Shown here: positions 28,804 through 48,512 of the stretch, in pieces
How the letters are laid out: every line of letters begins with the position of its first letter
Position numbering within the stretch: the first letter of the stretch is position 1
NCBI GenBank assembly: GCA_020425635.1
Contig: JAGQRJ010000710.1
Coordinates: forward strand, 1-51,663
Length of the DNA stretch: 51,663 nucleotides
Direction: 5' to 3'
Source: Planctomycetota bacterium
Lineage (GTDB): Bacteria; Planctomycetota; J058
The notes under the pieces: generated by a model
The model's database searches: none
What the model was told of the DNA's origin: nothing
Seen by the model: only the letters and a program-made list of their open reading frames with translations
Position numbers and translations under genes: made by a program

Positions 28804-28805
28804 GG

Positions 28806-29504: not shown

Positions 29505-29581
29505 TGAGGGACGCCTCCTGCTCGAGCCGGGCGAAGGTCACGCGACCGGCGAGTCCATTGAGAGCGCGAAGTATACGTCGA

Positions 29582-29595
29582 GTCAGGCGACTGAC
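29582..29595. promoter_or_regulatory. Perfect inverted repeat GTCAG-gcga-CTGAC in the norC/nirK divergent region
   Basis: Read directly from the sequence. It lies 78-91 bp upstream of the norC ATG. Confidence 0.35.
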
Positions 29596-29614
29596 AAGTC
29601 CGGTGAATAAATAC
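29595..29614 (+). promoter_or_regulatory. CAAGTCCG + AT-rich box (CAAGTCCGGTGAATAAATAC), shared with the nsrR/cytochrome c intergenic region
   Basis: The same 8-mer CAAGTCCG, followed by S-T-(G)-AATA and an AT-rich run, recurs on the minus strand at 33348-33367. It forms an AT-rich island in a very GC-rich background. Confidence 0.35.
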
Positions 29615-29764
29615 GGGACCGTGGAGTCCAGTGAGTCCGGTTGCTATACAAGCGCATGGCGGGGGAGCCGCGAGTCAGACGACGCACGGGCGAGCGGCGA
29701 CTTTCGGCCTGCTCGCGTCCGGCGGTGTCGACCCCGCTGAAGCCTGACACCTGCTTGCAGGCCA

Positions 29765-29780
29765 GGGATCCGTGGATCCC
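29765..29780. promoter_or_regulatory. 16-bp perfect palindrome GGGATCC-gt-GGATCCC upstream of nirK
   Basis: Read directly from the sequence. It lies 44-59 bp upstream of the nirK GTG and could be an operator or a 5'-UTR hairpin. Confidence 0.35.
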
Positions 29781-29823
29781 TTCGAGCCGGCAGACATTCA
29801 TCACACCCTTGGAGGAATGTTTC

Positions 29824-31287: not shown

Positions 31288-31297
31288 GGGAACCTCG

Positions 31298-32158: not shown

Positions 32159-32166
32159 GGACCCGT

Positions 32167-32835
32167 ATGCGCTTCCTTCGCACGATCCTGTTTGGCGCCG
32201 TGATGGCGTGCTGCGGCTGCGAGGAGCCGGTGGCCGCCACGGACCCGGCCGCAGCCGACCGGACCAGCGGAGCGCCAGCAGCGGGCGGTCCATCCGTCCC
32301 TGGCCTGAGCAACTGCTGCAGCAAGGAGGAAGCGGGCGCGACGGTCCCGGGGACCTCGGTCTACCAGCTCGAGTCGACCTGGCAGGACCAGAGCGGGGCG
32401 GAACGGCAACTTGTGAGCTTCCGCGGTCGCCCGGTCGTCATGGCGATGATCTTCACCACCTGCGAGTACGCCTGTCCGCGGATCATGTCGGACTTGAAGC
32501 GGATCGAGGAAGCGCTGGGCGAGGGACGAGAGAAGGTCCGGTTCGTGCTGGTCTCGTTCGACGCTGAACACGACCAGCCGCGCGTGCTGGCCGAGTACGC
32601 GAAGACCCAGGACCTCGACCTCGCGCGCTGGACCTTGCTGCATGGGGCCGAGGCCGACGTGCGCGAGCTGGCGGGGGCGCTGGGGATCAAGTTCAAGAAG
32701 TCGACCGCGGTTGGCTTCTCGCACTCCAACGCGATCTCGCTGCTCGACGTCGACGGTCGAATCACGCTGCAACTGCAGGGCCTCGGCGTGGAACCCGCAG
32801 AACTCCTCGCGGCGCTTCGTGAGCCAGGCCAGTGA
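32167..32835 (+). CDS. SCO1/SenC-family copper chaperone (222 aa)
   Basis: Thioredoxin-like CxxxCP motif (FTTCEYACP) and conserved His (FSHSNAISLLD). N-terminal lipobox-like segment AVMACCGC. Start is ATG 32167; an in-frame GTG at 32155 overlaps the nirV stop. Confidence 0.8.
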   Translation: MRFLRTILFGAVMACCGCEEPVAATDPAAADRTSGAPAAGGPSVPGLSNCCSKEEAGATVPGTSVYQLESTWQDQSGAERQLVSFRGRPVVMAMIFTTCEYACPRIMSDLKRIEEALGEGREKVRFVLVSFDAEHDQPRVLAEYAKTQDLDLARWTLLHGAEADVRELAGALGIKFKKSTAVGFSHSNAISLLDVDGRITLQLQGLGVEPAELLAALREPGQ

Positions 32836-32873
32836 CGCCGACCGCCCGGCGCTGGCGACCGCTCCATCCTCCG

Positions 32874-33293
32874 CTACTCCGAGATCGGGACCCAATCGTT
32901 GAGCACGTCGGCGAGGGTCGTGCCGCGGGCCCAGTGGAGCAAGCTCTCCATGAGGGAAGAGCGGGCAGGGTGCAACGGGCAGGGGTGCTTGGGGTCGCAC
33001 GACTTCCAGCCAAAGGCGCAGTGGTCTTCGTCCACGTCGACGTCGACCGCGTTGAGGATCTCGTCGAAGGAGATATCCGCCGGCTCGTAGGCGAGGGCGA
33101 AGCCACCCCCGTGGCCCTTTTGGGCCACCAGCAAGCCGGCCACGGTCAGTCGTCGCAGGAGCTTGGACAGATACGCGGCCGGCACTCCCGTTTGGTCAGC
33201 GACCTGCAACGCCGGCGCGCTCTCGTCACCGAGGGTCGCCAGGTAAGCCATGGCCCGCAGCGCGTACTCGCCTCTCGTAGGCATACCCAGCAT
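32874..33293 (-). CDS. nsrR: Rrf2-family transcriptional regulator, likely the NO-sensing NsrR type (139 aa)
   Basis: N-terminal wHTH: TRGEYALRAMAYLA...VPAAYLSKLLRRLTVAGLLVAQKGHGGGFAL. Three-Cys cluster: CAFGWKSCDPKHPC (C-x6-C-x5-C). Its genomic context is denitrification. The tracked ORF extends upstream, but the homologous part starts at ATG 33293 (alternative 33284). Confidence 0.7.
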   Translation of the reverse strand: MLGMPTRGEYALRAMAYLATLGDESAPALQVADQTGVPAAYLSKLLRRLTVAGLLVAQKGHGGGFALAYEPADISFDEILNAVDVDVDEDHCAFGWKSCDPKHPCPLHPARSSLMESLLHWARGTTLADVLNDWVPISE

Positions 33294-33347
33294 GCGGACT
33301 TTATAGCAGCTGCCCTGAACGGACGCCAAGGTGGGCCCTCGACGCCC

Positions 33348-33367
33348 AATGAATATTAGCGGACTTG
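33348..33367 (-). promoter_or_regulatory. Second copy of the CAAGTCCG + AT-rich box (minus strand CAAGTCCGCTAATATTCATT)
   Basis: The plus strand reads aatgaatattagcggacttg. The box lies 55-74 bp upstream of the nsrR ATG and 68-87 bp upstream of the cytochrome c ATG. Confidence 0.35.
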
Positions 33368-33434
33368 CGAGTCGCCTGAGGGCGGGGTATCTTTTTGCGC
33401 TCAATGGACGGTTTGGTCCTGTGAAGTGAGGCCC

Positions 33435-33854
33435 ATGAAGACCCGCATGAATCTCGTTGCGATCCTGATTGCCCTGGCTACTGTCTCGTTCTTGGGCGGC
33501 TGCCCGCAGAGCGGTGCGAGCAAGGACTCCGCCCCTGCGGCGTCTGGCGCCGCGGCGAGCAAACCCTCCGCCGCGAGCTTGGCCGCCGCGGAGAAGTTCT
33601 CGACCCTCTGCGCCAGCTGCCACGGGGCCAGCGGCCAGGGTGACGGCCCCGCGGCGGCAGCCCTCGACCCCAAACCTCGGAACTACAGCGACGCGGCCTG
33701 GCAGGCCTCGGTCAGCGACGAAGACCTCAGCAAGATCATCCTCGAAGGTGGCGCTGCGGTCGGGAAGAGCCCGATCATGCCGCCCAGCGCCGACCTCAAG
33801 GACAAGCCCGAGGTCGTCAAAGAACTCGTGAAGCTGATTCGTTCCTTCAAGTAG
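33435..33854 (+). CDS. Monoheme class I cytochrome c lipoprotein (139 aa)
   Basis: Lipobox: SFLGG/C. An Ala/Ser-rich linker follows. Heme site CASCH, with Met ligand region SPIMPP. Confidence 0.85.
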   Translation: MKTRMNLVAILIALATVSFLGGCPQSGASKDSAPAASGAAASKPSAASLAAAEKFSTLCASCHGASGQGDGPAAAALDPKPRNYSDAAWQASVSDEDLSKIILEGGAAVGKSPIMPPSADLKDKPEVVKELVKLIRSFK

Positions 33855-33963
33855 GCCAGCGCTCACCGCGCCGGGACGCCAAGCGCGCTCTCGGGTGTTC
33901 GCGGCTACCGCTCGAGCACCTCGCTCCTCCCCGGGTGTTCAAGCATGTGAAGGGTTTAGCAGC

Positions 33964-35505
33964 ATGTACAAGTCCACGAAGCCGTGTGCTGTCGTCTTCC
34001 TGTGCTCGGTCGCCTGTGCCACCACGGGCGCGCTCGCACAGGACGGATCCGAGCCCGCTCCAGACCCAGAGGTCGAAGCGCTCAGGCTAAAGGTCGACGA
34101 GCTCAACCATCGGCTCGAGGCCCTCGAGGGGGGCTCTCCGTCGGCGGGTCCCGTCGCGCCCGAGGGCGTCGCGTCCGCCGACGTCGCGCCTGAAGCCACA
34201 TCCGTGATCGTCCGGCGAGGGACGAAAGCGGAAGGTGGGGGCTTGATGATCGACCTCGGTGACGCGATGCGGCTGCGCTTCGACGCCCAGCTCCGCTGGC
34301 GCGGCGAGTTTCGTGGAGACAGCTACGCCCAGCCCAAGGTCGAGCAGAACACCGATTTCGTCCTGCAGCGCCTGCGGTTGACCCTCGACTTCGACTACAA
34401 CCAATACCTCGGGGCGCGCGTCACGGTTCAGGATAGTCGCCAATGGGGCGACAAACTCGACGGCTTCGCCGGCCCGCGCCTCGCGTCCGATCAGCCCGAA
34501 CTCATGCTCTACGAGGGCTACGCCGAGCTGCGCAACCCCTTCGACGCGCCCCTCGTGCTGAAGGTCGGTCGCATGGCCGTGCCGAACCTGGGCAACCAGC
34601 GGCTGATCTCGAACCTGGACTGGAGCAACGTCGCGCGCTCCTTCGACGGAGCGCAGATCACCTTCACCCCGAAGGGCTGGTGGATGACGGCCTTCGCCTC
34701 GAACCTGCGCGAGGCGTCGGCGCTGCCGATCCCCGGGGACGAGAACGACGACTCCTGGCTGGTGGGGGCCTACCTCAGCAACCGCATGCTGGCGGACCAC
34801 CAGTTCGACGCCTTCCTCTACTGGAGGCGGGTTGGAGATCGCACGCTGACCGCGCTCACGACCGGACCGTCGGGTGGGCGCGGAGCGCGCCAGGACTACA
34901 CCACCGGCCTGCGCATGCAGGGCGAGGCGGGGGTGCTGTTCTACAACGGCATGTTTGCCTATCAGTTCGGCGGCGTCGGCGGCGACACGATCGACGCTTG
35001 GGCCGCGGCCCTCGAGGCCGGCGCCAAGCTCGCGTTCGGGGATCAGTGGCTGAAGATCTCGAGCGAGTTCGCCTGGGCCAGCGGAGACAAGGACGCCACG
35101 GATTCCCGGATCCAGACCTTCGACCCGCTGCTGCCCTTCGCCCACTATTACAACGGCCACCAGGACCTGTTCGCCTGGCGCAACCTCCACTCGCTCAACC
35201 TCAAGCTCGCCTACTCGCCGCTGAAGACCCTTAGCCTGCACAGCGACCTGCACTTCTTCTGGCTGCAGCACCGGAGCGACAGCTGGTACGGGCTCGGGTT
35301 CACGCGAACCGACACGGCGGGCGCCGCAAACAGCAGGCACGTGGGGTCAGAACTCGACCTCTACGTGAAGTACCAGGTCCTGGACGGGCACCTCTCGTTC
35401 TGGGGTGGGTACTCCCACTTCTTCCCCGGTGAGTTCGTCCGGGACACGGGTCCCAAGACCTCGGATCAGTCCTTCGCGTTCCTCATGGGGACGGTGAACT
35501 TCTAG
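33964..35505 (+). CDS. Outer-membrane beta-barrel channel of the alginate-export (AlgE-like) family (513 aa)
   Basis: Signal peptide MYKSTKPCAVVFLCSVACATTGALA/QD. N-terminal coiled coil EALRLKVDELNHRLEALE. Alternating beta-strand pattern (LRFDAQLRWRGEF, RLRLTLDFDY, ...). C-terminal ...GTVNF with a terminal Phe. Confidence 0.7.
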   Translation: MYKSTKPCAVVFLCSVACATTGALAQDGSEPAPDPEVEALRLKVDELNHRLEALEGGSPSAGPVAPEGVASADVAPEATSVIVRRGTKAEGGGLMIDLGDAMRLRFDAQLRWRGEFRGDSYAQPKVEQNTDFVLQRLRLTLDFDYNQYLGARVTVQDSRQWGDKLDGFAGPRLASDQPELMLYEGYAELRNPFDAPLVLKVGRMAVPNLGNQRLISNLDWSNVARSFDGAQITFTPKGWWMTAFASNLREASALPIPGDENDDSWLVGAYLSNRMLADHQFDAFLYWRRVGDRTLTALTTGPSGGRGARQDYTTGLRMQGEAGVLFYNGMFAYQFGGVGGDTIDAWAAALEAGAKLAFGDQWLKISSEFAWASGDKDATDSRIQTFDPLLPFAHYYNGHQDLFAWRNLHSLNLKLAYSPLKTLSLHSDLHFFWLQHRSDSWYGLGFTRTDTAGAANSRHVGSELDLYVKYQVLDGHLSFWGGYSHFFPGEFVRDTGPKTSDQSFAFLMGTVNF

Positions 35506-35512
35506 GCGGGGC

Positions 35513-35833
35513 TCAGGTCTGGGTGTCGTTGATCCAGGTCCAGGCGGCGACGGCGCCCGGGAGCCCGATCGTCGTCGCCGCCAGGGCCACGACCTGATCC
35601 ATGTCTGCCTGAGTCACGCCGGCTGCGGGCGCTTTGCGCGCCGCGGAGTGAACCGCGCCTTCGCGCAGGGCGCCAATGCTGATCCCCAGCTTGACGAGCC
35701 GCTGCTCGCGAGTCGAGAGCGGACCGTTCGCGCTCCCCTTGCCGAGCAGGCTCCAGGCCTCGCCGATCTCGGGGAAGCGCTCCACGAAGCGGCGGAAGGT
35801 CTCAGGCGGCGGCGGCGTGTCGGACATGGTCAA
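35513..35833 (-). CDS. Carboxymuconolactone decarboxylase (CMD/AhpD-like) family protein without Cys residues (106 aa)
   Basis: Helical CMD-like sequence (LSTREQRLVKLGISIGALREGAVHSAARKA). It starts 45 nt after the napF-like stop, so it is probably the last gene of the nap operon. There is no CxxC motif. Confidence 0.6.
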   Translation of the reverse strand: MTMSDTPPPPETFRRFVERFPEIGEAWSLLGKGSANGPLSTREQRLVKLGISIGALREGAVHSAARKAPAAGVTQADMDQVVALAATTIGLPGAVAAWTWINDTQT

Positions 35834-35878: not shown

Positions 35879-36496
35879 CTATGCAGCAGGTGGCGCGCCG
35901 AGGGGCTCGATACGAAGCGCATCGGCCGGGCAGATCACGGCGCACTTCCCGCAGCCCGTGCAGGCCTCCGTGTCGATCAGCGGCAGCTCGCCTCGACCGG
36001 GGACGCGGATCGCCCGGGGGCGGGGCGGGCAAGGCCCTCGGCAGTAGTTGCAGTCTTGCTGGTGGGCGCTGCTGTAGCACAGCGCCGGGTCGACGACGGC
36101 TACGCCGATCTTGACCGCGCCCTCCGGCGGCTTAAGCGCCGAGGTCTCGCAGGCCGCGACGCAGGGCAGGTCCTCGCACATCAGGCAGGCCGTGATCGAG
36201 GGCAAGATCACGGGGGTCCCTGCGATTTTCGCGCCCAACTCGGGCCCCGCCTTGCGGATCACGTGGTGGGGGCAGGCAAGAATGCAGTCGTTGCACGACG
36301 TGCAGGCGGCGAGGAACTCGGCTTCGCTTCCCGCGCCGGGCGGGCGCACGAAGGCAGGGCGCGGCGGCGCCGCGGGCGGCGTGCTCAAGGGCGACATCGC
36401 GCGCTGGGCTTGCGTGTAGATCTCCGAGACCACCTCGAGCGTGGAGCGGAGGCTGACCCGAAAGAAGTCGGCGCGTGTGTAGTTGGGCTCCGTCAC
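35879..36496 (-). CDS. napF: NapF-like poly-[4Fe-4S] ferredoxin (205 aa)
   Basis: GTG 36496 overlaps the upstream stop (GTGA). It has a vestigial Tat-like N-terminus (TRADFFRV) and VRPPGAGSEAEFLAACTSCNDCILACP. Three further Cys clusters are present: CLMCEDLPCVAACE, CNYCRGPCP and CTGCGKCAVICP. Confidence 0.7.
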   Translation of the reverse strand: MTEPNYTRADFFRVSLRSTLEVVSEIYTQAQRAMSPLSTPPAAPPRPAFVRPPGAGSEAEFLAACTSCNDCILACPHHVIRKAGPELGAKIAGTPVILPSITACLMCEDLPCVAACETSALKPPEGAVKIGVAVVDPALCYSSAHQQDCNYCRGPCPPRPRAIRVPGRGELPLIDTEACTGCGKCAVICPADALRIEPLGAPPAA

Positions 36497-38427
36497 ATCG
36501 CCGAGACCCGCATTTCCATGGGTTGGTTCAACAGCCACAAACTGACCGTACTCGAGGCGAGCATGGCGAGCAGCATGGGGATCTGGGCCAGGATTCCGCG
36601 CAGGCGGTCGGGGACCAACCCGCGGGTCGTGCGCTCGGAGATCCAGAGCCCGTAGAGGTGGCCGATCACCACGAAGAACACCTGGAGGATCCACAGGCCT
36701 TCGAGGGTGATCATGGGAGGCACGGCCCACCCCGCCGTGCCAAACAGGTCCCAGCCCCAGCCGCAGGGGTCGGACGCCAAGGCCAGGAGCTTGGGCCCCT
36801 CCATGAGGAAGTGCTCTGCGTTGTGGGCCAGGTGATAGAACAGCGCGATCGGCAGCAGCGCATAGGCGTAGCGCAAGAACACGGTCCGGGTGCGGGCGAC
36901 GCGGCCGATCATGGCGGTCGCCTTCGACAACAGCGCGAACAGCAAGACCGGCAACACGAGCAGCCCAACCATCAGCAGGCTGAACGAGGCCTGCGCCGGG
37001 ATCGCCAGGCTGGACTGCACCGCGTCGCTCCACTCCCCCCAGCGCGGGGTCATGGTCAACCCGTGAAACCCCGTCATGGAGAGCAACACGATCGCGAGGA
37101 ACGCCTCGTCCGAACGCCCCTTGCCGCCTTGGGCCAGGTCCGACGCCCAGGGCCGCAGGCGCACGGTGGTGTTGCCGTGCGGGCAGGTCTTGAGGCACTC
37201 GCCGCACGAGATGCAGTAGGTGTTGCGCTGCATCGTGCGCGGGAACTCGAAGGTCGGGCATCCGTCCCCTTCGGCGTTGCCCTTGTAGCAGTCCATGGTC
37301 CTGCAGGTCGAGCACACGGCGTCGTCTTTGGAGCGAACCTCGATCGGGGAGAACAAGGCGTAGAGCCCGGAGACACGACCCACCAGGCAGCCATAGCGAC
37401 AGAACGCCTTGCGGTCGAAAACCAGCACGCTGGTCACGGCCATCCCGAGCATGCCCAGCGCGAGGTAGGCCGTGACCCGAGGGACCATCGTCACGCCGAG
37501 CCCGAGCTCGACCCAGGTCAGGAGGACGAACAGCCCGACGGCCGGCCAGATGTTGCGGAGCTTCCGCGGCCAGCGCAGCCCGAGGCCCATGCCGGACTGC
37601 CTCGGACCCCAGGGCTTCAGGCGCTCGATCCAGGTCGCGATCCCGTCCCAGGGACACACGAAGCACCACAGCTTGCCGAAGTAGAGGATCAGGAAGATCA
37701 GCCCCGCCCACCAGATCGTCCAGGTGAGCAAGGGAGCGACGTTCATGGAAGGGTTCTGATTGCCAAACAACCCCGCGTAGATGATCAAGCAGAAGAACGC
37801 CGCGCACACCGACTGGAAGCAGAAACGCAGCGGCTTCCAGGTGACCAGCCGGCGCACCCAGGCCGCGCCGAGCAGGTCCTGGCGGGCGTCGAGCGCGGGC
37901 TGGGTGAGCGGGGCGCCGCGCCGCTCTCGCAGCCAAGACAGGAGCTCGAACAGCCCAAACGACACGAGCAGCAGGATCAGGACTCCGTATTGGTACATCC
38001 AGGCCGGGATCCCGCGCATCAGGTGCTTGTCCGCGCCTGCGGTGAGGCTCGGGGGGTGGGCCTGAATCCAACGCGCAGGCTCGGCGACCACGGCGTCGCG
38101 GCAATAGGTGGAGCAGAAGAAATAGGTGCGCTCCGCGACCGTCACCTGGTAAGCCGTCGCGCGGCGCACCGTCATGTTGCACACGACGTCGCGGGCGACC
38201 GCCGCCTCCTGCTGATCCTCGTGGGTCTGGACCTCCAGCCCTGCAGCCGCCGCGACCTCGGTCAGGTCGACGCTGTCGCGGGCCGTGCGCTGATCCCACA
38301 CCACCAGCCCGCTGACGAGCACGAACACGAGCCAGGGAAAGGAGAGCCCCAGGCAGCCCCAGGCACCGCGGCGACTTCCTCGCGTGCTCGCGGGGGGGGC
38401 CTGAACGACGGGAAGCGGTCGGCTCAC
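36493..38427 (-). CDS. Integral-membrane polyferredoxin of the NapH/FixG/NosR-C-terminal type with an N-terminal YHS (TRASH-like) metal-binding domain (644 aa)
   Basis: GTG 38427 overlaps the upstream stop (GTGA). TM1 is followed by the YHS signature DVVCNMTV...ERTYFFCSTYCRDAV. NapH-like membrane Cys motifs: LWCFVCPWDG and FCRYGCLVG. Ferredoxin clusters: CSTCRTMDC...GCP and CISCGECLKTCP. Several additional C-terminal TM helices follow. Confidence 0.75.
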   Translation of the reverse strand: MSRPLPVVQAPPASTRGSRRGAWGCLGLSFPWLVFVLVSGLVVWDQRTARDSVDLTEVAAAAGLEVQTHEDQQEAAVARDVVCNMTVRRATAYQVTVAERTYFFCSTYCRDAVVAEPARWIQAHPPSLTAGADKHLMRGIPAWMYQYGVLILLLVSFGLFELLSWLRERRGAPLTQPALDARQDLLGAAWVRRLVTWKPLRFCFQSVCAAFFCLIIYAGLFGNQNPSMNVAPLLTWTIWWAGLIFLILYFGKLWCFVCPWDGIATWIERLKPWGPRQSGMGLGLRWPRKLRNIWPAVGLFVLLTWVELGLGVTMVPRVTAYLALGMLGMAVTSVLVFDRKAFCRYGCLVGRVSGLYALFSPIEVRSKDDAVCSTCRTMDCYKGNAEGDGCPTFEFPRTMQRNTYCISCGECLKTCPHGNTTVRLRPWASDLAQGGKGRSDEAFLAIVLLSMTGFHGLTMTPRWGEWSDAVQSSLAIPAQASFSLLMVGLLVLPVLLFALLSKATAMIGRVARTRTVFLRYAYALLPIALFYHLAHNAEHFLMEGPKLLALASDPCGWGWDLFGTAGWAVPPMITLEGLWILQVFFVVIGHLYGLWISERTTRGLVPDRLRGILAQIPMLLAMLASSTVSLWLLNQPMEMRVSAM

Positions 38428-39011
38428 GACGCGCGCCGCGCAGCGCGCCGGGCGCGCTTGATCTTCAGCGAGCGGACGGTGAGCAGGAGCAGCACGAACC
38501 CGCCCACGCAGCCTCCGAGGATCAGTGCCGGAGAACCGGGCTCCCCGACCACCATCGGGAAGGTCAGCGTCGAAGTAATTTCGCCGTCGGGAAACGAGAG
38601 CGTGATCTCGTAGTTCCCAACCGCGTCGTAGGTGGGATAGAACTTGTAGACGTTCTCGCTGAGGGTCACCTCCCTCGGCCCGAAGACCTCGTGGCGCGAA
38701 CCCAGCAGCGAGAGCCGCTCGACTTCGAGGGTCAGCGGTTGGCGATACAGGCTCCGGCTCTGCGCGTCGACCACGTAGACGTGGAGCTCGGTCGGCACAC
38801 CGGGCACGGGCTTGCCCGGGTAGGCGGTGAGTTGGAACTCCCACTGGCCGACGTTCTCGATCAGCTTGAGCACGGGCGCCTGCGGGTAGTTCTCGTCGTA
38901 GGAGTAGTGAGGGATCCCCATGATGTGGTGCGCCCAAGCGGGCGTGCTCGGCACGACCAGGAGCAGGAGCGCTCCGAGGAGGAGGCTCAACGCGACGCGC
39001 GTCCTGCTCAT
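38424..39011 (-). CDS. Exported, C-terminally membrane-anchored protein maturing to an N-terminal His-His (HHIMGIPHY...); putative metal (Cu)-binding Ig-like protein (195 aa)
   Basis: ATG 39011 overlaps the napH stop (ATGA). Signal peptide MSRTRVALSLLLGALLLLVVPSTPAWA/HH. The ~140-aa beta-rich body is followed by the TM anchor ALILGGCVGGFVLLLLTV and the basic tail RSLKIKRARRAARRAS. The family is not recognised. Confidence 0.6.
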   Translation of the reverse strand: MSRTRVALSLLLGALLLLVVPSTPAWAHHIMGIPHYSYDENYPQAPVLKLIENVGQWEFQLTAYPGKPVPGVPTELHVYVVDAQSRSLYRQPLTLEVERLSLLGSRHEVFGPREVTLSENVYKFYPTYDAVGNYEITLSFPDGEITSTLTFPMVVGEPGSPALILGGCVGGFVLLLLTVRSLKIKRARRAARRAS

Positions 39012-40156
39012 GAGGCGCCTCCCTCGGGCAGCTCCGCCGGCTCGGCGCCCGCCAGCGAGACCCCCTCCGGAGTCAGCGGGGCGACCGTCGCGACCGTCGC
39101 GCTGGTCGCAACGGGCAGCGGACGGCCCGTCATGGGCTTGGAGGTCACCGCAATGCGATAGCCCAGGGCCCGCACGGGGCAAGCGTCAATGCACTCTCCG
39201 CAGTTGTCGCACTCGCTGACCGTGCGGTCGGTCATGGGCAGCTCGCCCTGCGGGCAGACCTTGTCGCAGATCGTGCAATCGATGCACACGTCGCGCTTGC
39301 GCCGCACGCGCACGAGGCGCCAGCGCCCGAGCAGCGAATACAGCGCCCCGCCGGGACACACGGTGCGGCACCAGAAGCGCGGGGCGACTGCCACCTCGAG
39401 CCCCATGAGCAGGAGCAAGAACGCCGTGCCGCCGGTCACGCCGACCAGGGCCAACCCAGGCATGCCGTCTTCCGCGCGGTCGAACAGGGCGAACACGAAG
39501 GAGTGGGCCTCGCGGCCGAGGATCGCGGGTGGATAGAAGGTGTTCAGCACGGCGTCGCCCGTGAGCAGCGCCAGGGCGAGGCCGACGGCGAGCAGGAGGT
39601 ACTTCGTCCCGCGGCTGAACCTGAGATCGAGCGGCTTGATCTCGAGCAGCTTGGGCAGCAGCGAGCGCACCCAGGCCGAGAGGTCGAACAGCAGACCCAT
39701 GGGGCAGATCCAGCCGCAGAACACGCGCCCGAGGAGCACGGTCAGCGCCAACGGGAGCAGCAGGCCGGAGATCAGCACCCAGGGCGCAGCCCACGACGCG
39801 CAGGCGCTCTCCGTGGCGGCCAGCGGGTCGGTCAGGGAGACCCCGCCCACCTCCGCCGACCAGGGCGACCCGTGGAAGCCCCGGGAGCGCTCGAGGATCG
39901 CCCTCCGCGGGCGACGCGTCGGGACGCCGCTCTCGCCGTCTGGGATCCCAACCCGCAGGGCAGCGTCGGTGACCTGGAGCACGAGGCCCTGGGTCGATCC
40001 TTCCCAGCGCTCGATCTGCTTGTCGAGCTGGCGTGCGGCGAGGTAGTGGTTGTAGCGCGCGATCACCGGAAAGGCGAACAACGCCACGACCACCAGCAGC
40101 TGCACGCTGCGCCGGAAGGGCCACACCGGGAACCGACGCTTCGGCGCGAGCTTCAC
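39008..40156 (-). CDS. napH: NapH-type membrane quinol dehydrogenase subunit (about 382 aa)
   Basis: Membrane motifs CGWICPMG and CRTVCPGG. Two ferredoxin clusters: CIDCTICDKVCP and CDNCGECIDACP. The start is either GTG 40156 (GTGA overlap, preceded by CGGAGG) or GTG 40162. Confidence 0.8.
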   Translation of the reverse strand: MKLAPKRRFPVWPFRRSVQLLVVVALFAFPVIARYNHYLAARQLDKQIERWEGSTQGLVLQVTDAALRVGIPDGESGVPTRRPRRAILERSRGFHGSPWSAEVGGVSLTDPLAATESACASWAAPWVLISGLLLPLALTVLLGRVFCGWICPMGLLFDLSAWVRSLLPKLLEIKPLDLRFSRGTKYLLLAVGLALALLTGDAVLNTFYPPAILGREAHSFVFALFDRAEDGMPGLALVGVTGGTAFLLLLMGLEVAVAPRFWCRTVCPGGALYSLLGRWRLVRVRRKRDVCIDCTICDKVCPQGELPMTDRTVSECDNCGECIDACPVRALGYRIAVTSKPMTGRPLPVATSATVATVAPLTPEGVSLAGAEPAELPEGGAS

Positions 40157-40734
40157 AGCCACCTCCGCTCGGAGAACACGCGGATCGCCTTGTCGCGATC
40201 GACGATGCACACCTCTTCACAGAGACCACAGCCCACGCAGAACTCGTCGTGAACGGTGGGGGAGAGGTGCATGCCTTGGGTGATCGCCTTGCCTCGCAGC
40301 GGGCAGGCGGTGTAGCAGGCGCCGCAGATTCCGCTCCCGTTGGCGCTCACGCAGAGGTCGTTGTCGACCACCGCCGTACCCATGCGCGCTTCGCTCTTCG
40401 CGGTCAGCGCGACGATCGCGCCCGTGGGGCAGGCCTCGCCGCAGCGCATGCAGAGGTTGCAGGCGTGCTCCTCGGCCACGATCACGGGCGTGTCCGCGAG
40501 GTGGGACGAGCCGGGGAGCAACCGGATCGCCCGCGTGTCGCACACCTGCGCGCAGCGCTGGCAGCGAATGCAGCGGGTGAGGAACTCGGGCTCGGGCAGT
40601 GAGCCTGGGGGGCGCAGCAGCCCGCGCCGCTTGAGCTCGGGGGAGATCAGCGCCGGGAGGTGGAATCGCGAGCGCGCGTAGAACGCGAGCGCGCCCCCGA
40701 CGCCGAGCACGCTGCCCACCAGCCACTTGAGCAT
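40153..40734 (-). CDS. napG: NapG-like ferredoxin, N-terminally membrane-anchored paralogue (193 aa)
   Basis: N-terminal hydrophobic segment MLKWLVGSVLGVGGALAFYA. Then LRPPGSLPEPEFLTRCIRCQRCAQVCD and three more Cys clusters (CNLCMRCGEACP, CGACYTACP, CVGCGLCEEVC). Confidence 0.75.
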   Translation of the reverse strand: MLKWLVGSVLGVGGALAFYARSRFHLPALISPELKRRGLLRPPGSLPEPEFLTRCIRCQRCAQVCDTRAIRLLPGSSHLADTPVIVAEEHACNLCMRCGEACPTGAIVALTAKSEARMGTAVVDNDLCVSANGSGICGACYTACPLRGKAITQGMHLSPTVHDEFCVGCGLCEEVCIVDRDKAIRVFSERRWL

Positions 40735-40745
40735 TGCGCGGCGCT

Positions 40746-41375
40746 TCAGGTTGCCCTCGTCATGTCGGGCACGATCGTGATCGCTTGCGGGTAGCGAATG
40801 CAGGCGCGCTCGCAGAGTCCGCAGCCAATGCAGACCTCCGGGTCGACCTCCGGGCGCTCGAAGAGGCCCGCCTTGAGCGCCCGCCGTTCGAAGGGACAGG
40901 CCTGCACGCACACGCCGCAGGAGCTCCCCTGGAACGAGTAGCAGAGGTTTGGATCCACCTCTGCGCGACCCATGGAGACCTTCTCCTGGATCGCCTCGGG
41001 GGTCTTCTTGATCACCTGCAGGGCGCCCGTCGGGCACGCCGCCGTGCAGCGCAGCTCGTCGCCTTCGCTCCCCACGCACAAGCTGCAGGCTTGCCGACGC
41101 GGAAAGATCGCCGGCGTGCGCACCTGCCCCGCGCCCGGGGTCAACGAAAACGGACTCCCCGTCTCCTCGGTGAACGGGAGAATGCACTGGTTGGGGCAGG
41201 CATCTCCGCAGCGGGCGCAGCGGATGCAGCGCGCGAGGAACTCGTCCTCGGGGAGGGCGCCGGGCGGACGCATCACGTCCGCCCGGGCCCGGGTGCCTCC
41301 GTGGAAGCCGAACCCAGCCGCCAGCGACGCGCCGAGGAGCGTCCCTGCCTTCATGAACTCCTTGCGCGTGAGCAC
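40746..41375 (-). CDS. napG: NapG-like periplasmic ferredoxin with Tat-like leader (about 209 aa)
   Basis: VLTRKEFMKAGTLLGASLAAG is an RK-variant twin-Arg-like leader. Then MRPPGALPEDEFLARCIRCARCGDACP, CSLC...CTAACP, CGVCVQACP and CIGCGLCERAC. The start is uncertain: GTG 41375 or ATG 41354. Confidence 0.7.
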   Translation of the reverse strand: MLTRKEFMKAGTLLGASLAAGFGFHGGTRARADVMRPPGALPEDEFLARCIRCARCGDACPNQCILPFTEETGSPFSLTPGAGQVRTPAIFPRRQACSLCVGSEGDELRCTAACPTGALQVIKKTPEAIQEKVSMGRAEVDPNLCYSFQGSSCGVCVQACPFERRALKAGLFERPEVDPEVCIGCGLCERACIRYPQAITIVPDMTRAT

Positions 41376-41395
41376 GTTCCGCTCGCTCCTGCGGC

Positions 41396-44152
41396 TCAGA
41401 TCTTCTCGATCCGCGCGGCGAACTTCTTGAAGTCCGCCTGACCCGAGACGGGATCCCAAGCTCGGTGGCTGACGCCGTTGACCAACCAGCGGTTCTCCTT
41501 GGGGTCGGCGCTGTCGGCCACCGAGAGGTTCCAGGGGCTGAACATGTAGCCGGGGAGGACCTCGTTGCGCGCGGGGCGGATCATGGAGTCGGTGCCTACC
41601 GAGACCCGGGCCTCGTAGGACCCGCGACGCGTGACCAGGCGCACGTTCTCGCCGTCTTCGAGCCCGAAGCGCTTGGCGTCTTCCTCGTTGACCTCGACGT
41701 ATTGCTCGGGCACGAGCTTGCGAGTCGTCCCGCCGCGCACGGTCTTCGCGGTGTGGAAGTGCTCGTAGACGATCCCCAGGCCGAGGAAGAAGGGGTACTT
41801 GTCTTCCTTGGTGAAGTCCGCGAGGGTCTTGTCGGCGTCGTAGTAGTCGTCGAGGTCAGGCAGCTCGGGGACCAGCGCGTTGTCGCGCGCCTCGAACAGG
41901 GTCTCCATTTGGTCGATGAAGAACGGCTCCTTCTCGGCCGCGGCCAGGATCTCAGCGGGTGAGGCGCCCTTCTTGACGAGGTCGCCGGTCTTGCGCCCGA
42001 CCTCGGACATGCGACCGCAGATCTCCTTGATCTTGCTGTAGTCCTGCTCGCAGAGCTTCATCTTGGCCTTCCCGCCGGCTTGCGGGAAGTTCTCGTAGGG
42101 CCGGTTGGCCCAGTGCTCTTCTTGTCCGAAGTAACGGCGCTTGGTGCCGCCGGCCTTGGCGCTCTCGTAGCTCGGGGCGGGCCACTGAATGCCGCGGAGC
42201 TGGCGCAGCTGATCGTAGAGCCCGATCCCGTCCTTCTTCTCGACCTCGAGCATGCCGGTCAGGTCGGCGTCGGAGCCCTTGGACGCGATGACGATGTCGC
42301 GGAAGACGTCCTCTGGGTCGTAGAAGCTCTGGCCGTACTCGTTCTTGATCGTCTTCTTGTAGGGGACGATCTTCTCGGCGTCGAGGCCGAGCTTCTTGGC
42401 GAGCGAGATGCACTTGTCGATCGCGAGGTCCATGTCGGGGCGCGCCTCCTTGAGCACCTCGCCCTTCTCGTTGCGGCCCACGCTGACCCCGTCGTTGACG
42501 TAGAGCCGACGCTCGCTCTGAATGTAGACGCCGCCCGTCCACTCGCCCCAGGTGATCGCCGGGAAGATCACGTCGCCATACAGGTTGTTGGGCGCGTGCC
42601 GGTAGATCTCCTGCACGACGACGAACATCTTGCTCAAGCCAGGCCGGATCAAGGTCTTGACGTCGGGCATGTGCACGTGGGTCGTGTACATGAAGAACAT
42701 GGCGTGCAGATCGTCCTTCAGCGCGCGCTCGAGCATGCCGATCGCCATCGGGTTCTGCATCCCGGCGGTCACGTCCAGCTGGCCCTCCGGGAGCCGCCAG
42801 CAGGTGTTGATGTGCCTGCGCCACTCGACGTCGTCGATCCCCTTGTTGAAGGGCAGACGCCCGGTGAGGCCGCCCATCAGGCGCTCGCTCATGGCGTTGG
42901 GCTGGCCAGTCTGGGAGTGGGTGCCGCAGCCGGGGCGGCCGAGGTTGCCGGTCAGCAGATGCAGGTTGATCACGGAGATCGTGTTGTGCTGACCGTGCAG
43001 GTGCTGGTTGAAGCCGATGCCCCAGTAGCTGACCACGCCGCCCTTGCCCCGCTTGCGGCCCTTGATCGAGGCCTCGGCCCAGAGCTTGCCGATCGTCTCG
43101 ATGTCTTCGACGGTGATCCGTCCACGGTCGAGGAGGTGCAGGCGCTCGACGACTTGCTTCGGCGAGTAGCGCTCTTTGATTCCCTTGACGTACTCCTTCC
43201 AGCCGGCGCAGTGCTTGTCGAGCCACGCGTCGGGCATGATCGCCTCGGGGTACTTCGTGAGCACCACGTGCGCGATCGCGTTGAGGTAGGAGATGTCGCC
43301 GTTGATCGTGGGGAAGTGGTAGCTGTTGCGCGGGTTTATGTCCTCCAGGCCCGTCACGGTTCCGGTGCGGCGCGGGTCGCTGACCAGGGTCGGGATGTCG
43401 TTCTTCTTCTTGTGGTCGGCGACGCGCCAGAACAGCACCGGGTGGCCTTCGCGGGCGTTGTGGCCCCAGAAGGTGATCATGTCGGCCATCTCGGCGTCTT
43501 CGTAGCAGGTCGGAGGTGTGTCCGACCCCAAGGTGGCGAAGTAGCCGGTCACGGCTGAGGTCATGCACATGCGCGCGTTGGCCTCGATCGAGTTCGACTG
43601 CAGGATCCCCTTCATGAGCAGGTTCTCGATGTACTGGGCCTCCATGGTCAGCTGGCCAGATCCAGAGAGCCCGACCGAGTTGCCGCCCTTGGCCTTGACG
43701 ATCGCCGCGATCTTCTCGGCGACGAGCTCTTCGGCCTCCTCGTAGGGCATCTCGTGGAACACCTCCTTGTCGAAGCGGCCCTTGGTGGCCGAGACGTGTC
43801 CGGTCAGCGGGTCGGACATGTCCTTGCGCACGAGGACCCGCTCGATCCGATCCTTGTAGATCGGCTCGTTGGCGTTGAGCCCCTTGATGCACTGCAGGCC
43901 CTTGTTCGTCGGGTGCTCCTTGTCGGGGATCATGCCCACGATCCGGTCACCCTCGACCTGGATCAGCGTCCCGCAGCCGACGCCGCAGTAGGGGCAGGCA
44001 GACTGCAACTGACGGCTGCCTTTGGCCTTGGCGTCTTCGGCGGAGACCATCTCGGCCGAGAACATGGGCAGCGCAGTGAGGCCGGCAGCGGTCGCACCGG
44101 AGGCCTTGAGGAACGTCCGGCGAGAAGGGTCAAAGGACTCGTTGTGACTCAT
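41396..44152 (-). CDS. napA: Periplasmic nitrate reductase catalytic subunit NapA (Mo-bisMGD, 918 aa)
   Basis: Tat leader: SRRTFLKASGATAAG. [4Fe-4S] motif: CPYCGVGCG. Mo-ligand Cys context: NARMCMTSAVTGYFATLG. NapA-like blocks: YWGIGFNQHLHG...INLHLLTGNLGRPGCGTHSQTGQPNA, and the C-terminal DPVSGQADFKKFAARIEKI. Confidence 0.85.
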   Translation of the reverse strand: MSHNESFDPSRRTFLKASGATAAGLTALPMFSAEMVSAEDAKAKGSRQLQSACPYCGVGCGTLIQVEGDRIVGMIPDKEHPTNKGLQCIKGLNANEPIYKDRIERVLVRKDMSDPLTGHVSATKGRFDKEVFHEMPYEEAEELVAEKIAAIVKAKGGNSVGLSGSGQLTMEAQYIENLLMKGILQSNSIEANARMCMTSAVTGYFATLGSDTPPTCYEDAEMADMITFWGHNAREGHPVLFWRVADHKKKNDIPTLVSDPRRTGTVTGLEDINPRNSYHFPTINGDISYLNAIAHVVLTKYPEAIMPDAWLDKHCAGWKEYVKGIKERYSPKQVVERLHLLDRGRITVEDIETIGKLWAEASIKGRKRGKGGVVSYWGIGFNQHLHGQHNTISVINLHLLTGNLGRPGCGTHSQTGQPNAMSERLMGGLTGRLPFNKGIDDVEWRRHINTCWRLPEGQLDVTAGMQNPMAIGMLERALKDDLHAMFFMYTTHVHMPDVKTLIRPGLSKMFVVVQEIYRHAPNNLYGDVIFPAITWGEWTGGVYIQSERRLYVNDGVSVGRNEKGEVLKEARPDMDLAIDKCISLAKKLGLDAEKIVPYKKTIKNEYGQSFYDPEDVFRDIVIASKGSDADLTGMLEVEKKDGIGLYDQLRQLRGIQWPAPSYESAKAGGTKRRYFGQEEHWANRPYENFPQAGGKAKMKLCEQDYSKIKEICGRMSEVGRKTGDLVKKGASPAEILAAAEKEPFFIDQMETLFEARDNALVPELPDLDDYYDADKTLADFTKEDKYPFFLGLGIVYEHFHTAKTVRGGTTRKLVPEQYVEVNEEDAKRFGLEDGENVRLVTRRGSYEARVSVGTDSMIRPARNEVLPGYMFSPWNLSVADSADPKENRWLVNGVSHRAWDPVSGQADFKKFAARIEKI

Positions 44153-44164
44153 GAATAGTTGTTC

Positions 44165-46135
44165 CTAGCGTTTCCAAGTACGAATGTGGGCAACGATCTT
44201 CTGGATCTCGTCCGCGGTCAGGTCGGCGACGCCGCCCACGCCCCGACCGAACGCGCGCATGGGGGTCCCGGCCCGACCGAGGGCGATCGTCGCCAGCAAC
44301 ATGCTGTCGCTGGCTGCGGTGAGGAATTCCGGGTTGTTGATCGAGGGCGCATACCCCTGGATCTGTTGTCCTGGCTGGGGGCCTCGGCCGTCGCTGCCGT
44401 GGCAGCCAGCGCACATGACCCGGAACAGGTGCCCGCCTTCGGCCAGATCCGCGGGGGAGGGCTCTGGGGCGGGGCGGCGCTCGAAGGGCTTGTTCTCGAA
44501 GGCGCGCACGTAGGTGACCACGGCCTCGACCTCTTCCGGCGTGAGGCTCACGTTGCCGCCGCGGTCGAAGGAGAGCATGGCGGTGCCCTCGCGACCGAGG
44601 ATCACGGTGCCGATCAGGAAGCCGTCCGTGGCCACCTTGAGGAAGTCGGGGTTTCCGATCGCCGGCCCGCTCGCGCCCTCTCCGTTCCGTCCGTGGCACT
44701 TGGCGCAGGCGGCCTTCTCCTCGTAGACCTCCCGACCCAGGTCCATTTCGACGCGCGAGCGCGGCCGCTTGAGCGGCTCGAGCGTGGGCCTGGCTTGCAG
44801 CTCGCGGAGGTAGGCCACCAGGTCGTCGATCTGCGCGGGCTCGAGGCTGACCAACTCGCCGCCCGCGGAGCCCTTGAGGAAGCCCTTCATGGCGCTCCCC
44901 GACTTGCCGTAGGCGATCGTCTGGAAGAGGAACGCGTCGTCGGCGCACTCGAGGAAGACACGGTTGCCGATCTGTCCACCGACCCCGCCCCGGCCCTCGG
45001 CTCCGTGGCACTGCGTGCAGTACGAGGCGTAGAGCTGTGCGCCCGCCTTGGGGTCGCCCTGGGGGGGCCGGGGCTCAGGGACGACGGACTCGACCTCCTG
45101 CCAGGTGCGAATGTAGGTGATCAAGTCGGCGACGTCGGGGGCGCTGAGGAAGTGCCATTGCGGCATGGCGGTCCCGGGCCGTCCCCTGACGATCGAGTGG
45201 TAGAGGAACTCGTCCGACGCCAAGGAGAGGAACGACTGGCTGTTGAGGCGCGAACCGATCCCGCCCTCGCCCTGCTTTCCGTGACAGGCCACGCAGCGCG
45301 ACCCGAAGATCGTCTTGCCGACCTGGGCGCTGCGCTTGGTGGCGTGTTTGCGCAGGTCCGCGACGTCCGCGAAGGTATGGCCTGGCTCCCGCCAGCTGCG
45401 CAGGTAGGCGAGCAGGTCCGAGACCTCTCCCGCGTCGAAGCGAGTGCCCGCAGGCATGGCGGTGTGCCCCCGACCGAACGCGATCGTGTCGCGGAGGAAC
45501 TCGTCGGAGGCGACCGCCTGAAACGACCGTGAGCGCAGCGAGTTGCCGATCCCGCCTTGGCCGCTGGTCCCGTGGCAGGCGGCGCAGTTGCCGTGGAACA
45601 GCGCTTTGCCGCGGTCGACGTCGCCCAAGGCGACGTCGACCTTGCTGCGGTCTGGGCCCTCTGCTTGCCACGAGCGAATGTAGGCCACGAGGCTCTTGAT
45701 CGCGTTTGGCGTGAGGATCTGCTCCCAGCCGACCATGGCCGTCGAGGAGCGGCCGTGCTTGATGATCGCCTCGTAGTAGGCGTCGTCCACGACCGCCAAG
45801 ACCCGCTCGGAGTTGAGCGTGGGCATCCCCGGCAGCGGAGTCTTGCCGTCGGCGCCGTGGCAGCTGGCGCAGTAGGTCTTGAAGTGGACCGCGCCCGCTT
45901 CGATCGAGATCTCGTCCGACCCAGACTCCGAGGTCGGAGCAGGGGCGTCGGTCCCTGGACCCGCGGTCCGGGCTGGAGTGCCGACGACCGCCACGGCGAT
46001 CGAGATCCCGAGCACGGCGACGAACGCTCCTCCCAGGATCATTCCGTCGCGACGCAGCGCAGACAGACCTGCCGCCTCGGACGGGGTTGCTGCTGTGGAG
46101 GGAGTGGCGTGGGGGTGGTCGAGACCCTCGCTCAT
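44165..46135 (-). CDS. Membrane-anchored protein made of six tandem monoheme class I cytochrome c domains (656 aa)
   Basis: Signal-anchor: MILGGAFVAVLGISIAVAVVG. Six CxxCH sites are present (CASCH, CAACH, CVACH, CTQCH, CAKCH, CAGCH). Each is followed about 45-50 aa later by a G..GT.M Met-ligand region and an Y(I/L)R(S/T/E)W-type helix. ATG 46135 is preceded by AAGGAG. Confidence 0.9.
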   Translation of the reverse strand: MSEGLDHPHATPSTAATPSEAAGLSALRRDGMILGGAFVAVLGISIAVAVVGTPARTAGPGTDAPAPTSESGSDEISIEAGAVHFKTYCASCHGADGKTPLPGMPTLNSERVLAVVDDAYYEAIIKHGRSSTAMVGWEQILTPNAIKSLVAYIRSWQAEGPDRSKVDVALGDVDRGKALFHGNCAACHGTSGQGGIGNSLRSRSFQAVASDEFLRDTIAFGRGHTAMPAGTRFDAGEVSDLLAYLRSWREPGHTFADVADLRKHATKRSAQVGKTIFGSRCVACHGKQGEGGIGSRLNSQSFLSLASDEFLYHSIVRGRPGTAMPQWHFLSAPDVADLITYIRTWQEVESVVPEPRPPQGDPKAGAQLYASYCTQCHGAEGRGGVGGQIGNRVFLECADDAFLFQTIAYGKSGSAMKGFLKGSAGGELVSLEPAQIDDLVAYLRELQARPTLEPLKRPRSRVEMDLGREVYEEKAACAKCHGRNGEGASGPAIGNPDFLKVATDGFLIGTVILGREGTAMLSFDRGGNVSLTPEEVEAVVTYVRAFENKPFERRPAPEPSPADLAEGGHLFRVMCAGCHGSDGRGPQPGQQIQGYAPSINNPEFLTAASDSMLLATIALGRAGTPMRAFGRGVGGVADLTADEIQKIVAHIRTWKR

Positions 46136-47051: not shown

Positions 47052-48508
<1,457 letters not shown>

Positions 48509-48512
<4 letters not shown>

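Follow-up and report, generated by a model that had tools for sequence, protein, structure and literature searches.

Periplasmic nitrate reductases (Nap) are central to denitrification and nitrate ammonification, and the role of their iron–sulphur (Fe–S) module, NapGH(F), is debated between quinol dehydrogenase and reductive maturation. NosR, NirI and RdhC (PceC) are membrane Fe–S proteins of the NapH superfamily that carry an extra periplasmic cofactor module and serve one dedicated respiratory enzyme; in the case of NosR the enzyme is N2O reductase and the module a periplasmic flavin domain. In Campylobacter and Wolinella respiratory electrons reach NapA by a bc-type route, and NapGH is essential in a role described as unclear and possibly one of reductive maturation (PMC6195509); a passage of the same source, citing Kern & Simon 2009, has NapF attached to the membrane through NapH. 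Here we analysed two overlapping genes, called A and B, in a nap-type operon on a stretch of 51,663 nucleotides from a Planctomycetota bacterium (assembly GCA_020425635.1, contig JAGQRJ010000710.1), referred to below as the window. A encodes an exported, membrane-anchored protein with a predicted His-His N terminus and B a membrane polyferredoxin. The pair is very probably a Nap-specific module. We propose, tentatively and at somewhat less than even chances, that A and B are translated together and act as membrane subunits dedicated to a Nap-type system that is distinct and widespread, with a periplasm-facing metal centre serving Nap. No published description of the pair was found in the literature on NapH with YHS, YtkA with NapH, or nap genes of Planctomycetes.

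Like the NapH protein of NapGH(F) modules, the core of B has four helices, two CxxCP-type motifs and two cytoplasmic [4Fe-4S] motifs, and it is encoded with NapA-, NapG- and NapF-like proteins. It differs by an N-terminal helix with one to three TRASH domains and by a five-helix His/Met module, and it comes in addition to a regular NapH-like protein. With NosR, NirI and RdhC it shares the NapH superfamily and the possession of a periplasmic module; here, however, the pair has TRASH, a His cluster and a separate His-His protein and not a flavinylated FMN_bind domain, and the enzyme served contains molybdenum and is neither NosZ nor a dehalogenase. The pairing of a polyferredoxin with a small membrane-anchored immunoglobulin (Ig)-like protein is also found in CcoG/FixG with FixH; a review (PMC7558416) describes CcoG as a cupric reductase. 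A is anchored at its C terminus, not at its N terminus, and is marked chiefly by a predicted processed N terminus, and A and B are found in nap-type clusters, not in ccoNOQP, fixGHIS or ccoGHIS clusters or with an oxidase.

Periplasmic His/Met clusters, TRASH Cys triads and N-terminal His residues are typical copper ligand sets. Binding of Cu(II) has been shown for YcnI and for Ang-1/Ang-2 (PMC8424229, PMC12362106, PMC12537917), the latter being N-terminal-His beta-sandwiches tethered to His-lined membrane domains that bind metal experimentally (PMC12537917), whereas N-terminal-His proteins of the DUF4198 family bind Ni (PMC12537917); the metal of such proteins depends on geometry (PMC12537917, PMC8424229). 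A resembles YcnI, CopC and Ang-1/Ang-2 in having a signal peptide (predicted for A) followed directly by His, a beta-sandwich, a tether and a His-lined membrane partner, but it has no sequence relationship with them, it possesses a conserved His-His arm of 20 residues, and its partner is an Fe–S protein of a respiratory operon, not CopD or HupE/UreJ. With DUF4198 it has in common an N-terminal His after the signal peptide (predicted for A), a second His nearby and a beta-sandwich (PMC12537917). A is without a Pfam match, and the DUF4198 proteins are associated with transporters of Ni/Co and with TonB receptors. The Ftr system (FtrABCD) includes FtrD, a NapH-like polyferredoxin, alongside FtrA(P19), a Cu-binding beta-sandwich that is Foldseek-similar to A (E ~1e-3); the TM-scores against A are low (0.36-0.48, root-mean-square deviation 5-8 Å), and P19 has its ligands within the fold itself. 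Iron uptake of the Ftr type was rejected, no Ftr1 permease or cupredoxin partner being present.

Genes A and B overlap each other and their nap-type neighbours

By the gene calls of the window, the minus-strand block 46135..35879 is one operon-like unit. The genes that immediately concern us are the following.

39008..40210, minus strand: NapH-like membrane ferredoxin, whose stop codon overlaps the ATG of gene A
38424..39011, minus strand: gene A, exported, C-terminally anchored beta-sandwich protein of 195 residues
36493..38427, minus strand: gene B, 11-helix polyferredoxin of the NapH superfamily, 644 residues
35879..36496, minus strand: NapF/NapG-like cytoplasmic ferredoxin, likely start GTG 36496

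The TGA of the NapH-like gene and the ATG of gene A overlap as ATGA, with GGAGG 8 nucleotides upstream of the ATG. The TGA of gene A overlaps the GTG of gene B at 38427 as GTGA, and in the same way the TGA of gene B runs into the GTG at which the NapF-like gene most likely starts. The three junctions thus give four serially overlapping genes, NapH–A–B–NapF. The NapF-like ferredoxin is without a hydrophobic signal sequence; its N-terminal TRADFFR resembles a vestigial twin-arginine motif from which the hydrophobic core is missing.

Protein A carries a conserved His-His arm next to its predicted cleavage site

Gene A runs on the minus strand from the ATG at 39011 to the stop codon at 38424-38426. 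Its product starts with MSRTR, followed by VALSLLLGALLLLVV (a hydrophobic core of 15 residues) and PSTPAWA, and continues with HHIMGIPHYSYDENYPQAPV. The cleavage site was placed by the -3/-1 rule, and we infer that mature A starts with NH2-His-His after cleavage by signal peptidase.

38931..39011, minus strand: signal peptide of A, residues 1-27, ending P-A-W-A
38871..38930, minus strand: predicted mature N-terminal arm of A, HHIMGIPHYSYDENYPQAPV, residues 28-47
38547..38870, minus strand: Ig-like beta-sandwich body of A, residues 48-155
38427..38531, minus strand: C-terminal membrane helix of A with the basic cytoplasmic tail RSLKIKRARR

The AlphaFold2 model of A, built from an alignment of 26 sequences, had a mean predicted local distance difference test score (pLDDT) of 84.4. 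It predicts a helix at residues 3-22 (the signal peptide), eight strands between residues 48 and 155 that form the beta-sandwich, and a helix at 161-194 comprising the membrane anchor and the KIKRARR tail. The least confident segment, with pLDDT <50, is the His-His arm (residues 25-35). No part of the protein is more conserved than this arm. H28, H29 and H35 within it are the only conserved residues that might bind a metal, and the alignment of relatives showed no conserved His, Asp, Glu, Cys or Met in the sandwich body. The lack of a conserved ligand in the body points to the arm as the functional element, and the combination of high conservation with low model confidence is expected if the segment becomes ordered on a partner or on a metal.

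A word-indexed search of 5.8 billion proteins returned only 27 relatives of A, and a profile search against 1.84 billion cluster representatives returned 363 at E<=1e-3 and 167 at E<=1e-10. Some of the profile matches were partial and fell on Ig-like repeats of giant proteins: profile positions 109-155 (~45 residues) matched 6-16 repeats in proteins of 1,000-6,400 residues (P0173, P0193, P0199 and others), which is probably generic similarity between Ig-like repeats. In addition, a divergent subfamily with the N-terminal pattern HHVLGRP[AS]Y has at least 1,718 members, mostly from metagenome-assembled genomes (MAGs) of marine or hydrothermal Gammaproteobacteria. Among 117 diverse relatives from the profile search with an intact N terminus, residue +1 was His in 113, and residue -1 was Ala, Gly or Ser in 115 (Ala 105, Gly 8, Ser 2); residue +2 of these 117 is His by construction of the search motif. 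Across relatives, Ala occupies -1 in about 90-95%, and in two locus sets -3 was always small or aliphatic. The rare +1/+2 variants, Asp-His and Gly-His, leave the second His as the most constant residue. His8 of the arm (in PHY) is kept in 81% of relatives. A correlation between the YHS domain in B and His8 in A was considered and found unsupported, many YHS-less B proteins being paired with an A of the HHILGIPHY type.

Neither by sequence nor by profile did A match any Pfam, NCBIfam or PDB entry, and it showed no sequence membership in CopC, DUF1775 or LPMO_10. FixH (PF05751) matched none of 26 members of the A family, nor any of ten divergent members, and YtkA (PF13115) matched one of the 26, at E=0.15; a few relatives carry a YtkA-like label in UniRef. 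Membership of A in FixH, YtkA, CopC, YcnI or DUF4198 was ruled out by this absence of a family match. The Foldseek matches of A were mostly generic Ig or macroglobulin (MG) domains, but included the periplasmic Cu-binding sandwiches FetP/P19/FtrA, CrdA and PmoD at E ~1e-3 to 1e-4. We take this predicted likeness as one of fold class, a lead and not a proof of homology.

Protein B is an enlarged NapH-type polyferredoxin with a conserved His/Met face

The model of B is an 11-helix membrane protein (pLDDT 84.6, predicted template modelling score 0.86) with the following parts.

Residues 22-47: first transmembrane helix of B
38062..38190, minus strand: YHS/TRASH domain of B, residues 80-122, C83-x21-C105-x3-C109, predicted periplasmic
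37168..37836, minus strand: NapH-like core of B, residues 198-420, with four helices, two CxxCP-type motifs and cytoplasmic 2x[4Fe-4S]
36496..37107, minus strand: C-terminal five-helix module of B, residues 441-644

The CxxCP-type motifs are C255/C258-P259 and C343/C347, and the [4Fe-4S] motifs comprise C372, C375, C380 and C390, and C405, C408, C411 and C415. The C-terminal module carries H455 on helix 7, the motif Y531-H532-x2-H535-x3-H539 with E543 at the periplasmic end of helix 9, and a terminal QPMEMRVSAM, all predicted to face the periplasm; the three His residues of helix 9 occupy successive turns of the one helix. Lys and Arg residues within 15 residues of the membrane number 28 on the proposed cytoplasmic side and 7 on the other. 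Read by the positive-inside rule, this charge bias puts the Fe–S domain in the cytoplasm; the YHS domain, the C terminus and the His cluster would lie in the periplasm.

We found at least 812 relatives of B. In 40 aligned sequences, including one YHS-less orthologue, the Fe–S and CxxCP cysteines were invariant, and so were H455, Y531, H532, H535, H539, E543 and Q635-P636-M637. Both YH[LIM]AHNxxH and QPMxMR are also present in the marine set, in 58 unique orthologues. The YHS domain of the window B, whose cysteine spacing fits the pattern C-x19-22-C-x3-C, reaches 18.5 bits on Pfam YHS (PF04945), where the gathering cutoff is 30.3. YHS was matched at E<=0.01 by every one of the 39 aligned relatives (best 3.7e-22), with C83, C105 and C109 invariant among them. 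The domain is nevertheless optional, since about 20 of the B orthologues in the GTDB set and all in the marine set are without it. In some relatives (P0097, P0098, P0126, P0138 and others) two or three tandem TRASH/zf-FCS-like repeats stand between helices 1 and 2, and the number of periplasmic Cys-triad domains per orthologue ranges from 0 to 3 within one family. In the 58 unique YHS-less proteins of the marine loci, M-[T/V]-H-P-G-L-P is the N terminus, and the first helix follows at once. Its counterpart in the window B is H135-x-M-x-G-I-P (H135 at about 38023-38025, minus strand). The motif loosely resembles H-H-I-M-G-I-P of A and, as judged from the sequence, may give the periplasmic side another potential terminus of the type NH2-X-His.

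At E<=0.01 B did not match CcoG (TIGR02745; cutoff 316.7 bits). On the NapH/MauN models it scored 30.9 bits (TIGR02163) and 30.3 bits (NF007013), without reaching the cutoffs of 213 and 234, and Fer4_5 was found in 31 of 39 relatives; the CxxCP and the two [4Fe-4S] motifs are features common to the whole NapH superfamily. The C terminus of B has five transmembrane helices in place of the FixG_C Ig-like domain, which is absent. Searched against Pfam at E<=5, the C-terminal module matched only Sdh_cyt (15 bits, E 0.022), with no transporter family and no HupE/UreJ-2 (PF13795). Foldseek with the whole model gave nothing meaningful in the PDB (lowest E 0.06, TM no higher than 0.12), and the only PDB profile match for the YHS region was the YHS domain of phenol hydroxylase, a structural Zn site. 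Two assignments of the C-terminal module were discarded: haem b, the only match being the 15-bit one to Sdh_cyt and the His spacing poor for two bis-His haems, and an inverted zincin (HxxEH) at HNAEH, as E538 varies (HNAGH, HNLNH).

An earlier, sequence-only reading of the window had given much of this anatomy, and it holds. The signal peptide ending AWA ahead of HHIMGIPHYSY is present as described, with cleavage predicted; the beta-rich body and C-terminal transmembrane anchor of A reappear in the model; the GTGA overlap of A and B was seen; a helix followed by a YHS/TRASH domain facing the periplasm in B is borne out by the 39 YHS matches and by the charge bias; and the NapH-like CxxCP motifs, the two [4Fe-4S] motifs and the extra helices are all present.

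Genes A and B are linked to nap genes in more than ten phyla

We examined 145 related loci, 65 from a scan of one genome per GTDB species (L010-L074) and 80 metagenomic loci of the marine subfamily (L075-L154). The GTDB locus set was picked by patterns that include the His-His motif, so unbiased frequencies come from the profile search. Gene neighbours were scored by tblastn with the window proteins, and recurrent neighbours were found by clustering all flanking open reading frames. The carriers include Planctomycetota, Elusimicrobiota, Myxococcota, Binatia, Latescibacterota and Krumholzibacteriia, and further Hydrogenedentota, Gemmatimonadales, Acidobacteriota and Verrucomicrobia; the locus counts cover two deeply divergent A subfamilies and >10 phyla.

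The cluster is fixed: a NapA-like protein, one or two copies of a NapG-like protein, a NapH-like protein, A, B and often a NapF-like protein. A NapA-like gene lies upstream in all informative loci (54/54 GTDB and 48/48 marine, 102/102 together), and a NapH-like gene lies upstream in all 63 informative GTDB loci. B follows A directly in 128 of 132 informative loci (55/59 GTDB and 73/73 marine); among the GTDB exceptions B is 3.7 kb away in one locus and absent in three. In L040, one of the loci without B, A is followed by a different protein of 715 residues with a ferredoxin-like motif at its end. An in-frame fusion that joins A to the C terminus of the NapH-like protein occurs in at least 21 of 61 loci; the 'signal peptide' of A is then an internal helix, and the Ala-x-Ala|His-His junction is kept. 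Single loci looked up one by one are consistent with the gene order found in the two sets.

NirK, NirV and SCO1 were found within about 10 kb in none of the 145 loci (the GTDB part being 65 loci and 991 kb). The only two NirK matches in the GTDB loci, at 45 bits, fell on the cytochrome c domain of NirK, and no copper-trafficking gene was recurrent among the clustered flanking reading frames. A Rieske protein, a cytochrome b and a multi-domain cytochrome c recur in 21-29 of the 65 GTDB loci, directly upstream of the NapA-like gene (e.g. L041:1287-2831, L071:19-531), and genes for alternative complex III (ACIII) lie downstream in 11 loci, e.g. L004. NapC and a NarXL-like two-component system recur in the marine set, and MoaA recurs in 11 loci. 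The Rieske, cytochrome b and ACIII genes suggest a bc-type or ACIII-type electron input to this Nap clade. With a cytochrome c and either a Rieske/cytochrome b pair or ACIII beside the clusters, the main electron supply to NapA can bypass NapGH, which leaves room for an accessory, non-bulk electron function of the module.

A proposed periplasm-facing metal centre and its alternatives

We propose the following arrangement. B would be a second, enlarged polyferredoxin of the NapH/NosR superfamily with its two [4Fe-4S] clusters on the cytoplasmic side, on which the NapF-like ferredoxin of the overlapping gene would dock and exchange electrons. The periplasmic face of B would present four His, one Glu and Met residues, plus the optional TRASH domains. 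A would be a periplasmic Ig-like domain on a C-terminal tether, often simply a C-terminal extension of NapH, and cleavage would free NH2-His-His on its flexible, conserved arm. This arm and the His/Met face of B may then form a joint metal centre at the membrane surface, facing the periplasm and wired through the Fe–S clusters of B to NapF and NapG-like proteins. By analogy with NosR, the centre would serve Nap by electron transfer to the enzyme or by its reductive activation or maintenance. The balance tips slightly towards binding of a metal by the pair. That the putative centre is redox-active in the service of Nap is possible, at a confidence below that of the proposal as a whole, and the identification of the metal as copper is more doubtful still. 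Copper is favoured by the His/Met ligand set, together with the Cys triad where TRASH is present, on general knowledge of periplasmic copper sites; but with Ni reported for DUF4198 and Cu for Ang-1/Ang-2 and YcnI, copper cannot be read from sequence. A bolder version, in which A and B would form an unprecedented redox centre at the membrane surface that couples NapF to NapG and NapA and is the missing element of NapGH-type modules in bc-fed Nap, we regard as improbable.

Several observations weigh against the proposed metal centre. To our knowledge NapA does not need Cu, Ni or any other periplasmically inserted metal. All carriers found are uncultured, the 65 at GTDB species level being MAGs. 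A or a NapH–A fusion occurs without B in L040 and L051 (10 kb downstream examined) and in L042 (about 4.6 kb). Cleavage at the internal helix of the NapH–A fusions would be unusual, His8 of A is missing in the large marine HHVLGRP[AS]Y subfamily, and H590 and E538 of B are not universal. Finally, the periplasmic His/Glu/Tyr cluster of B could be a metal-free site for quinol binding and proton release.

The sequence-only reading had assigned a different purpose to the pair, that of a FixG/FixH-like cupric reductase and chaperone. In the form weighed here, A and B would capture and reduce Cu(II), pass Cu(I) to NirK, NosZ or oxidases, and lie in nap operons by co-regulation only. We consider this quite unlikely. 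A purpose of copper supply does not fit a distribution with strict NapA/NapG/NapH linkage and fusion of A to NapH, with NirK, NirV and SCO1 in none of the loci and no recurrent copper-trafficking neighbour, and the nirK gene that lies 5 kb away in the window (TIGR02376, 350 bits), which would speak for such a supply, has its own NirV and SCO1/SenC directly downstream. At the level of loci (about 10 kb) the pair travels with Nap genes and not with copper enzymes. B belongs to the NapH/CcoG/NosR polyferredoxin superfamily, as the Fer4_5 and NapH matches show, and CcoG is described as a cupric reductase (PMC7558416); on the other hand neither CcoG nor FixH models were matched, and B is without the C-terminal Ig domain of FixG. 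The His/Met clusters, TRASH triads and N-terminal His are typical of copper, as in YcnI (PMC8424229), and some A relatives bear the YtkA-like UniRef label, yet the YHS domain is optional and an N-terminal His is not specific for copper, as the Ni-binding DUF4198 proteins demonstrate (PMC12537917). Of the histidine brace that had been suggested for A, a metal-binding role of the predicted N-terminal His is strengthened by its conservation; for the second ligand that a brace needs from the folded body no conserved residue was found, only His2 and (in 81%) His8 of the arm being conserved.

There are two further explanations. A might act as an 'anglerase' that catches Cu, Ni, Fe or Zn with its His-His arm and feeds a His-lined permease or a sequestering site in B, which may supply the Fe–S- and Mo-rich Nap machinery or may shield NapG, a periplasmic Fe–S protein, from toxic metal. 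The architecture parallels that of Ang-1/Ang-2 with HupE/UreJ-2 and of YcnI with YcnJ: the conserved arm is flexible, the outer face of B has His residues on successive helical turns and a Met-rich C terminus, and the FtrA/P19 proteins among the Foldseek matches of A belong to a system with the NapH-like FtrD. However, the C-terminal module of B has neither a Pfam transporter family nor a Foldseek match, a five-helix bundle on an Fe–S protein is no known permease design, and Nap cofactors are inserted in the cytoplasm before Tat (twin-arginine translocation) export; we assign this explanation a low probability. Less unlikely, but still unlikely, is that there is no metal centre, and that B partners the second NapG as another quinol dehydrogenase of the NapH type, its His/Glu/Tyr cluster being a site of quinol oxidation and proton exit, A a docking platform that holds NapG or NapA, and TRASH a binding site for structural zinc. 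Such a scheme would make use of the two NapG-like and two NapH-like proteins per cluster, of the weak Sdh_cyt match, which falls on the His-bearing helices of B, and of the generic Ig-like fold of the A sandwich, and the phenol hydroxylase YHS, the only PDB profile match in that region, has structural Zn. It leaves unexplained the near-absolute His-His exactly at the signal-peptidase site in both free and fused A, the M-T-H-P-G-L-P start of YHS-less B, and the invariant C-terminal QPMxMR of B.

Other genes of the window

The remaining genes of the nap block precede the NapH-like gene.

44165..46135, minus strand: membrane-anchored cytochrome c with six class-I haem domains
41396..44152, minus strand: NapA-like molybdoenzyme carrying a Tat signal; nearest among solved structures: NapA
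40746..41459, minus strand: first NapG-like ferredoxin, start uncertain
40153..40734, minus strand: second NapG-like ferredoxin, start uncertain

The best solved relatives of the NapA-like protein are periplasmic nitrate reductases (210-235 bits), and its score of 307 bits on NCBIfam NapA is under the cutoff of 904. The NapH-like neighbour reaches 129.8 and 123.8 bits on TIGR02163 and NF007013, also below the respective cutoffs. Just upstream of the ATG at 40734 of the second NapG-like gene there is a twin-arginine-like KRRAMLK (40734-40765, minus strand); since it precedes the first ATG, the start is probably a non-ATG codon lying in an overlap with the 3' end of the first NapG-like gene. The minus strand at 47052-48791, upstream of the cytochrome c and nap genes, encodes a response regulator of the sigma-54-dependent type with receiver, AAA+ and Fis-type helix-turn-helix domains; the cluster in L004 likewise has a gene for a sigma-54 factor-like protein beside it.

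A denitrification island, 27367-35833, adjoins the nap block.

27367-28803, minus strand: NorB/COX1-like protein
28806-29504, minus strand: NorC-like cytochrome c
29641-31287, plus strand: NirK–cytochrome c fusion (TIGR02376, 350 bits)
31298-32158: NirV/FGE-like protein (FGE-sulfatase fold)
32155-32835: SCO1/SenC (PF02630, 72 bits)
About 32874-33350, minus strand: Rrf2-family regulator
33426-33854: cytochrome c
33895-35505: Alginate_exp-type porin
35513-35833, minus strand: CMD-family protein

Near the nap cluster (21349-24444, minus strand) there is a gene for a B12-dependent ribonucleotide reductase of class II that carries a TSCPD domain. Such a reductase is also present in an unrelated marine gammaproteobacterial locus, L008/L009 (L008:12023-14949); its presence near nap in both loci may be a coincidence or reflect a shared anaerobic regulon.

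Significance

The two-protein addition to Nap is present in hundreds to thousands of environmental sequences from >10 mostly uncultured phyla. The A family and the C-terminal module of B are undescribed elements, and the pair combines two known kinds of protein, an N-terminal-His sandwich and a NapH-type polyferredoxin. For annotation, the locus illustrates that a function taken from YHS or FixG-like motifs can name the wrong partner enzyme. If the arm of A and the His/Met face of B do bind a metal, the pair would be a new metallo-subunit of a major enzyme of the nitrogen cycle, and the theme of N-terminal-histidine metalloproteins would extend into respiratory complexes.

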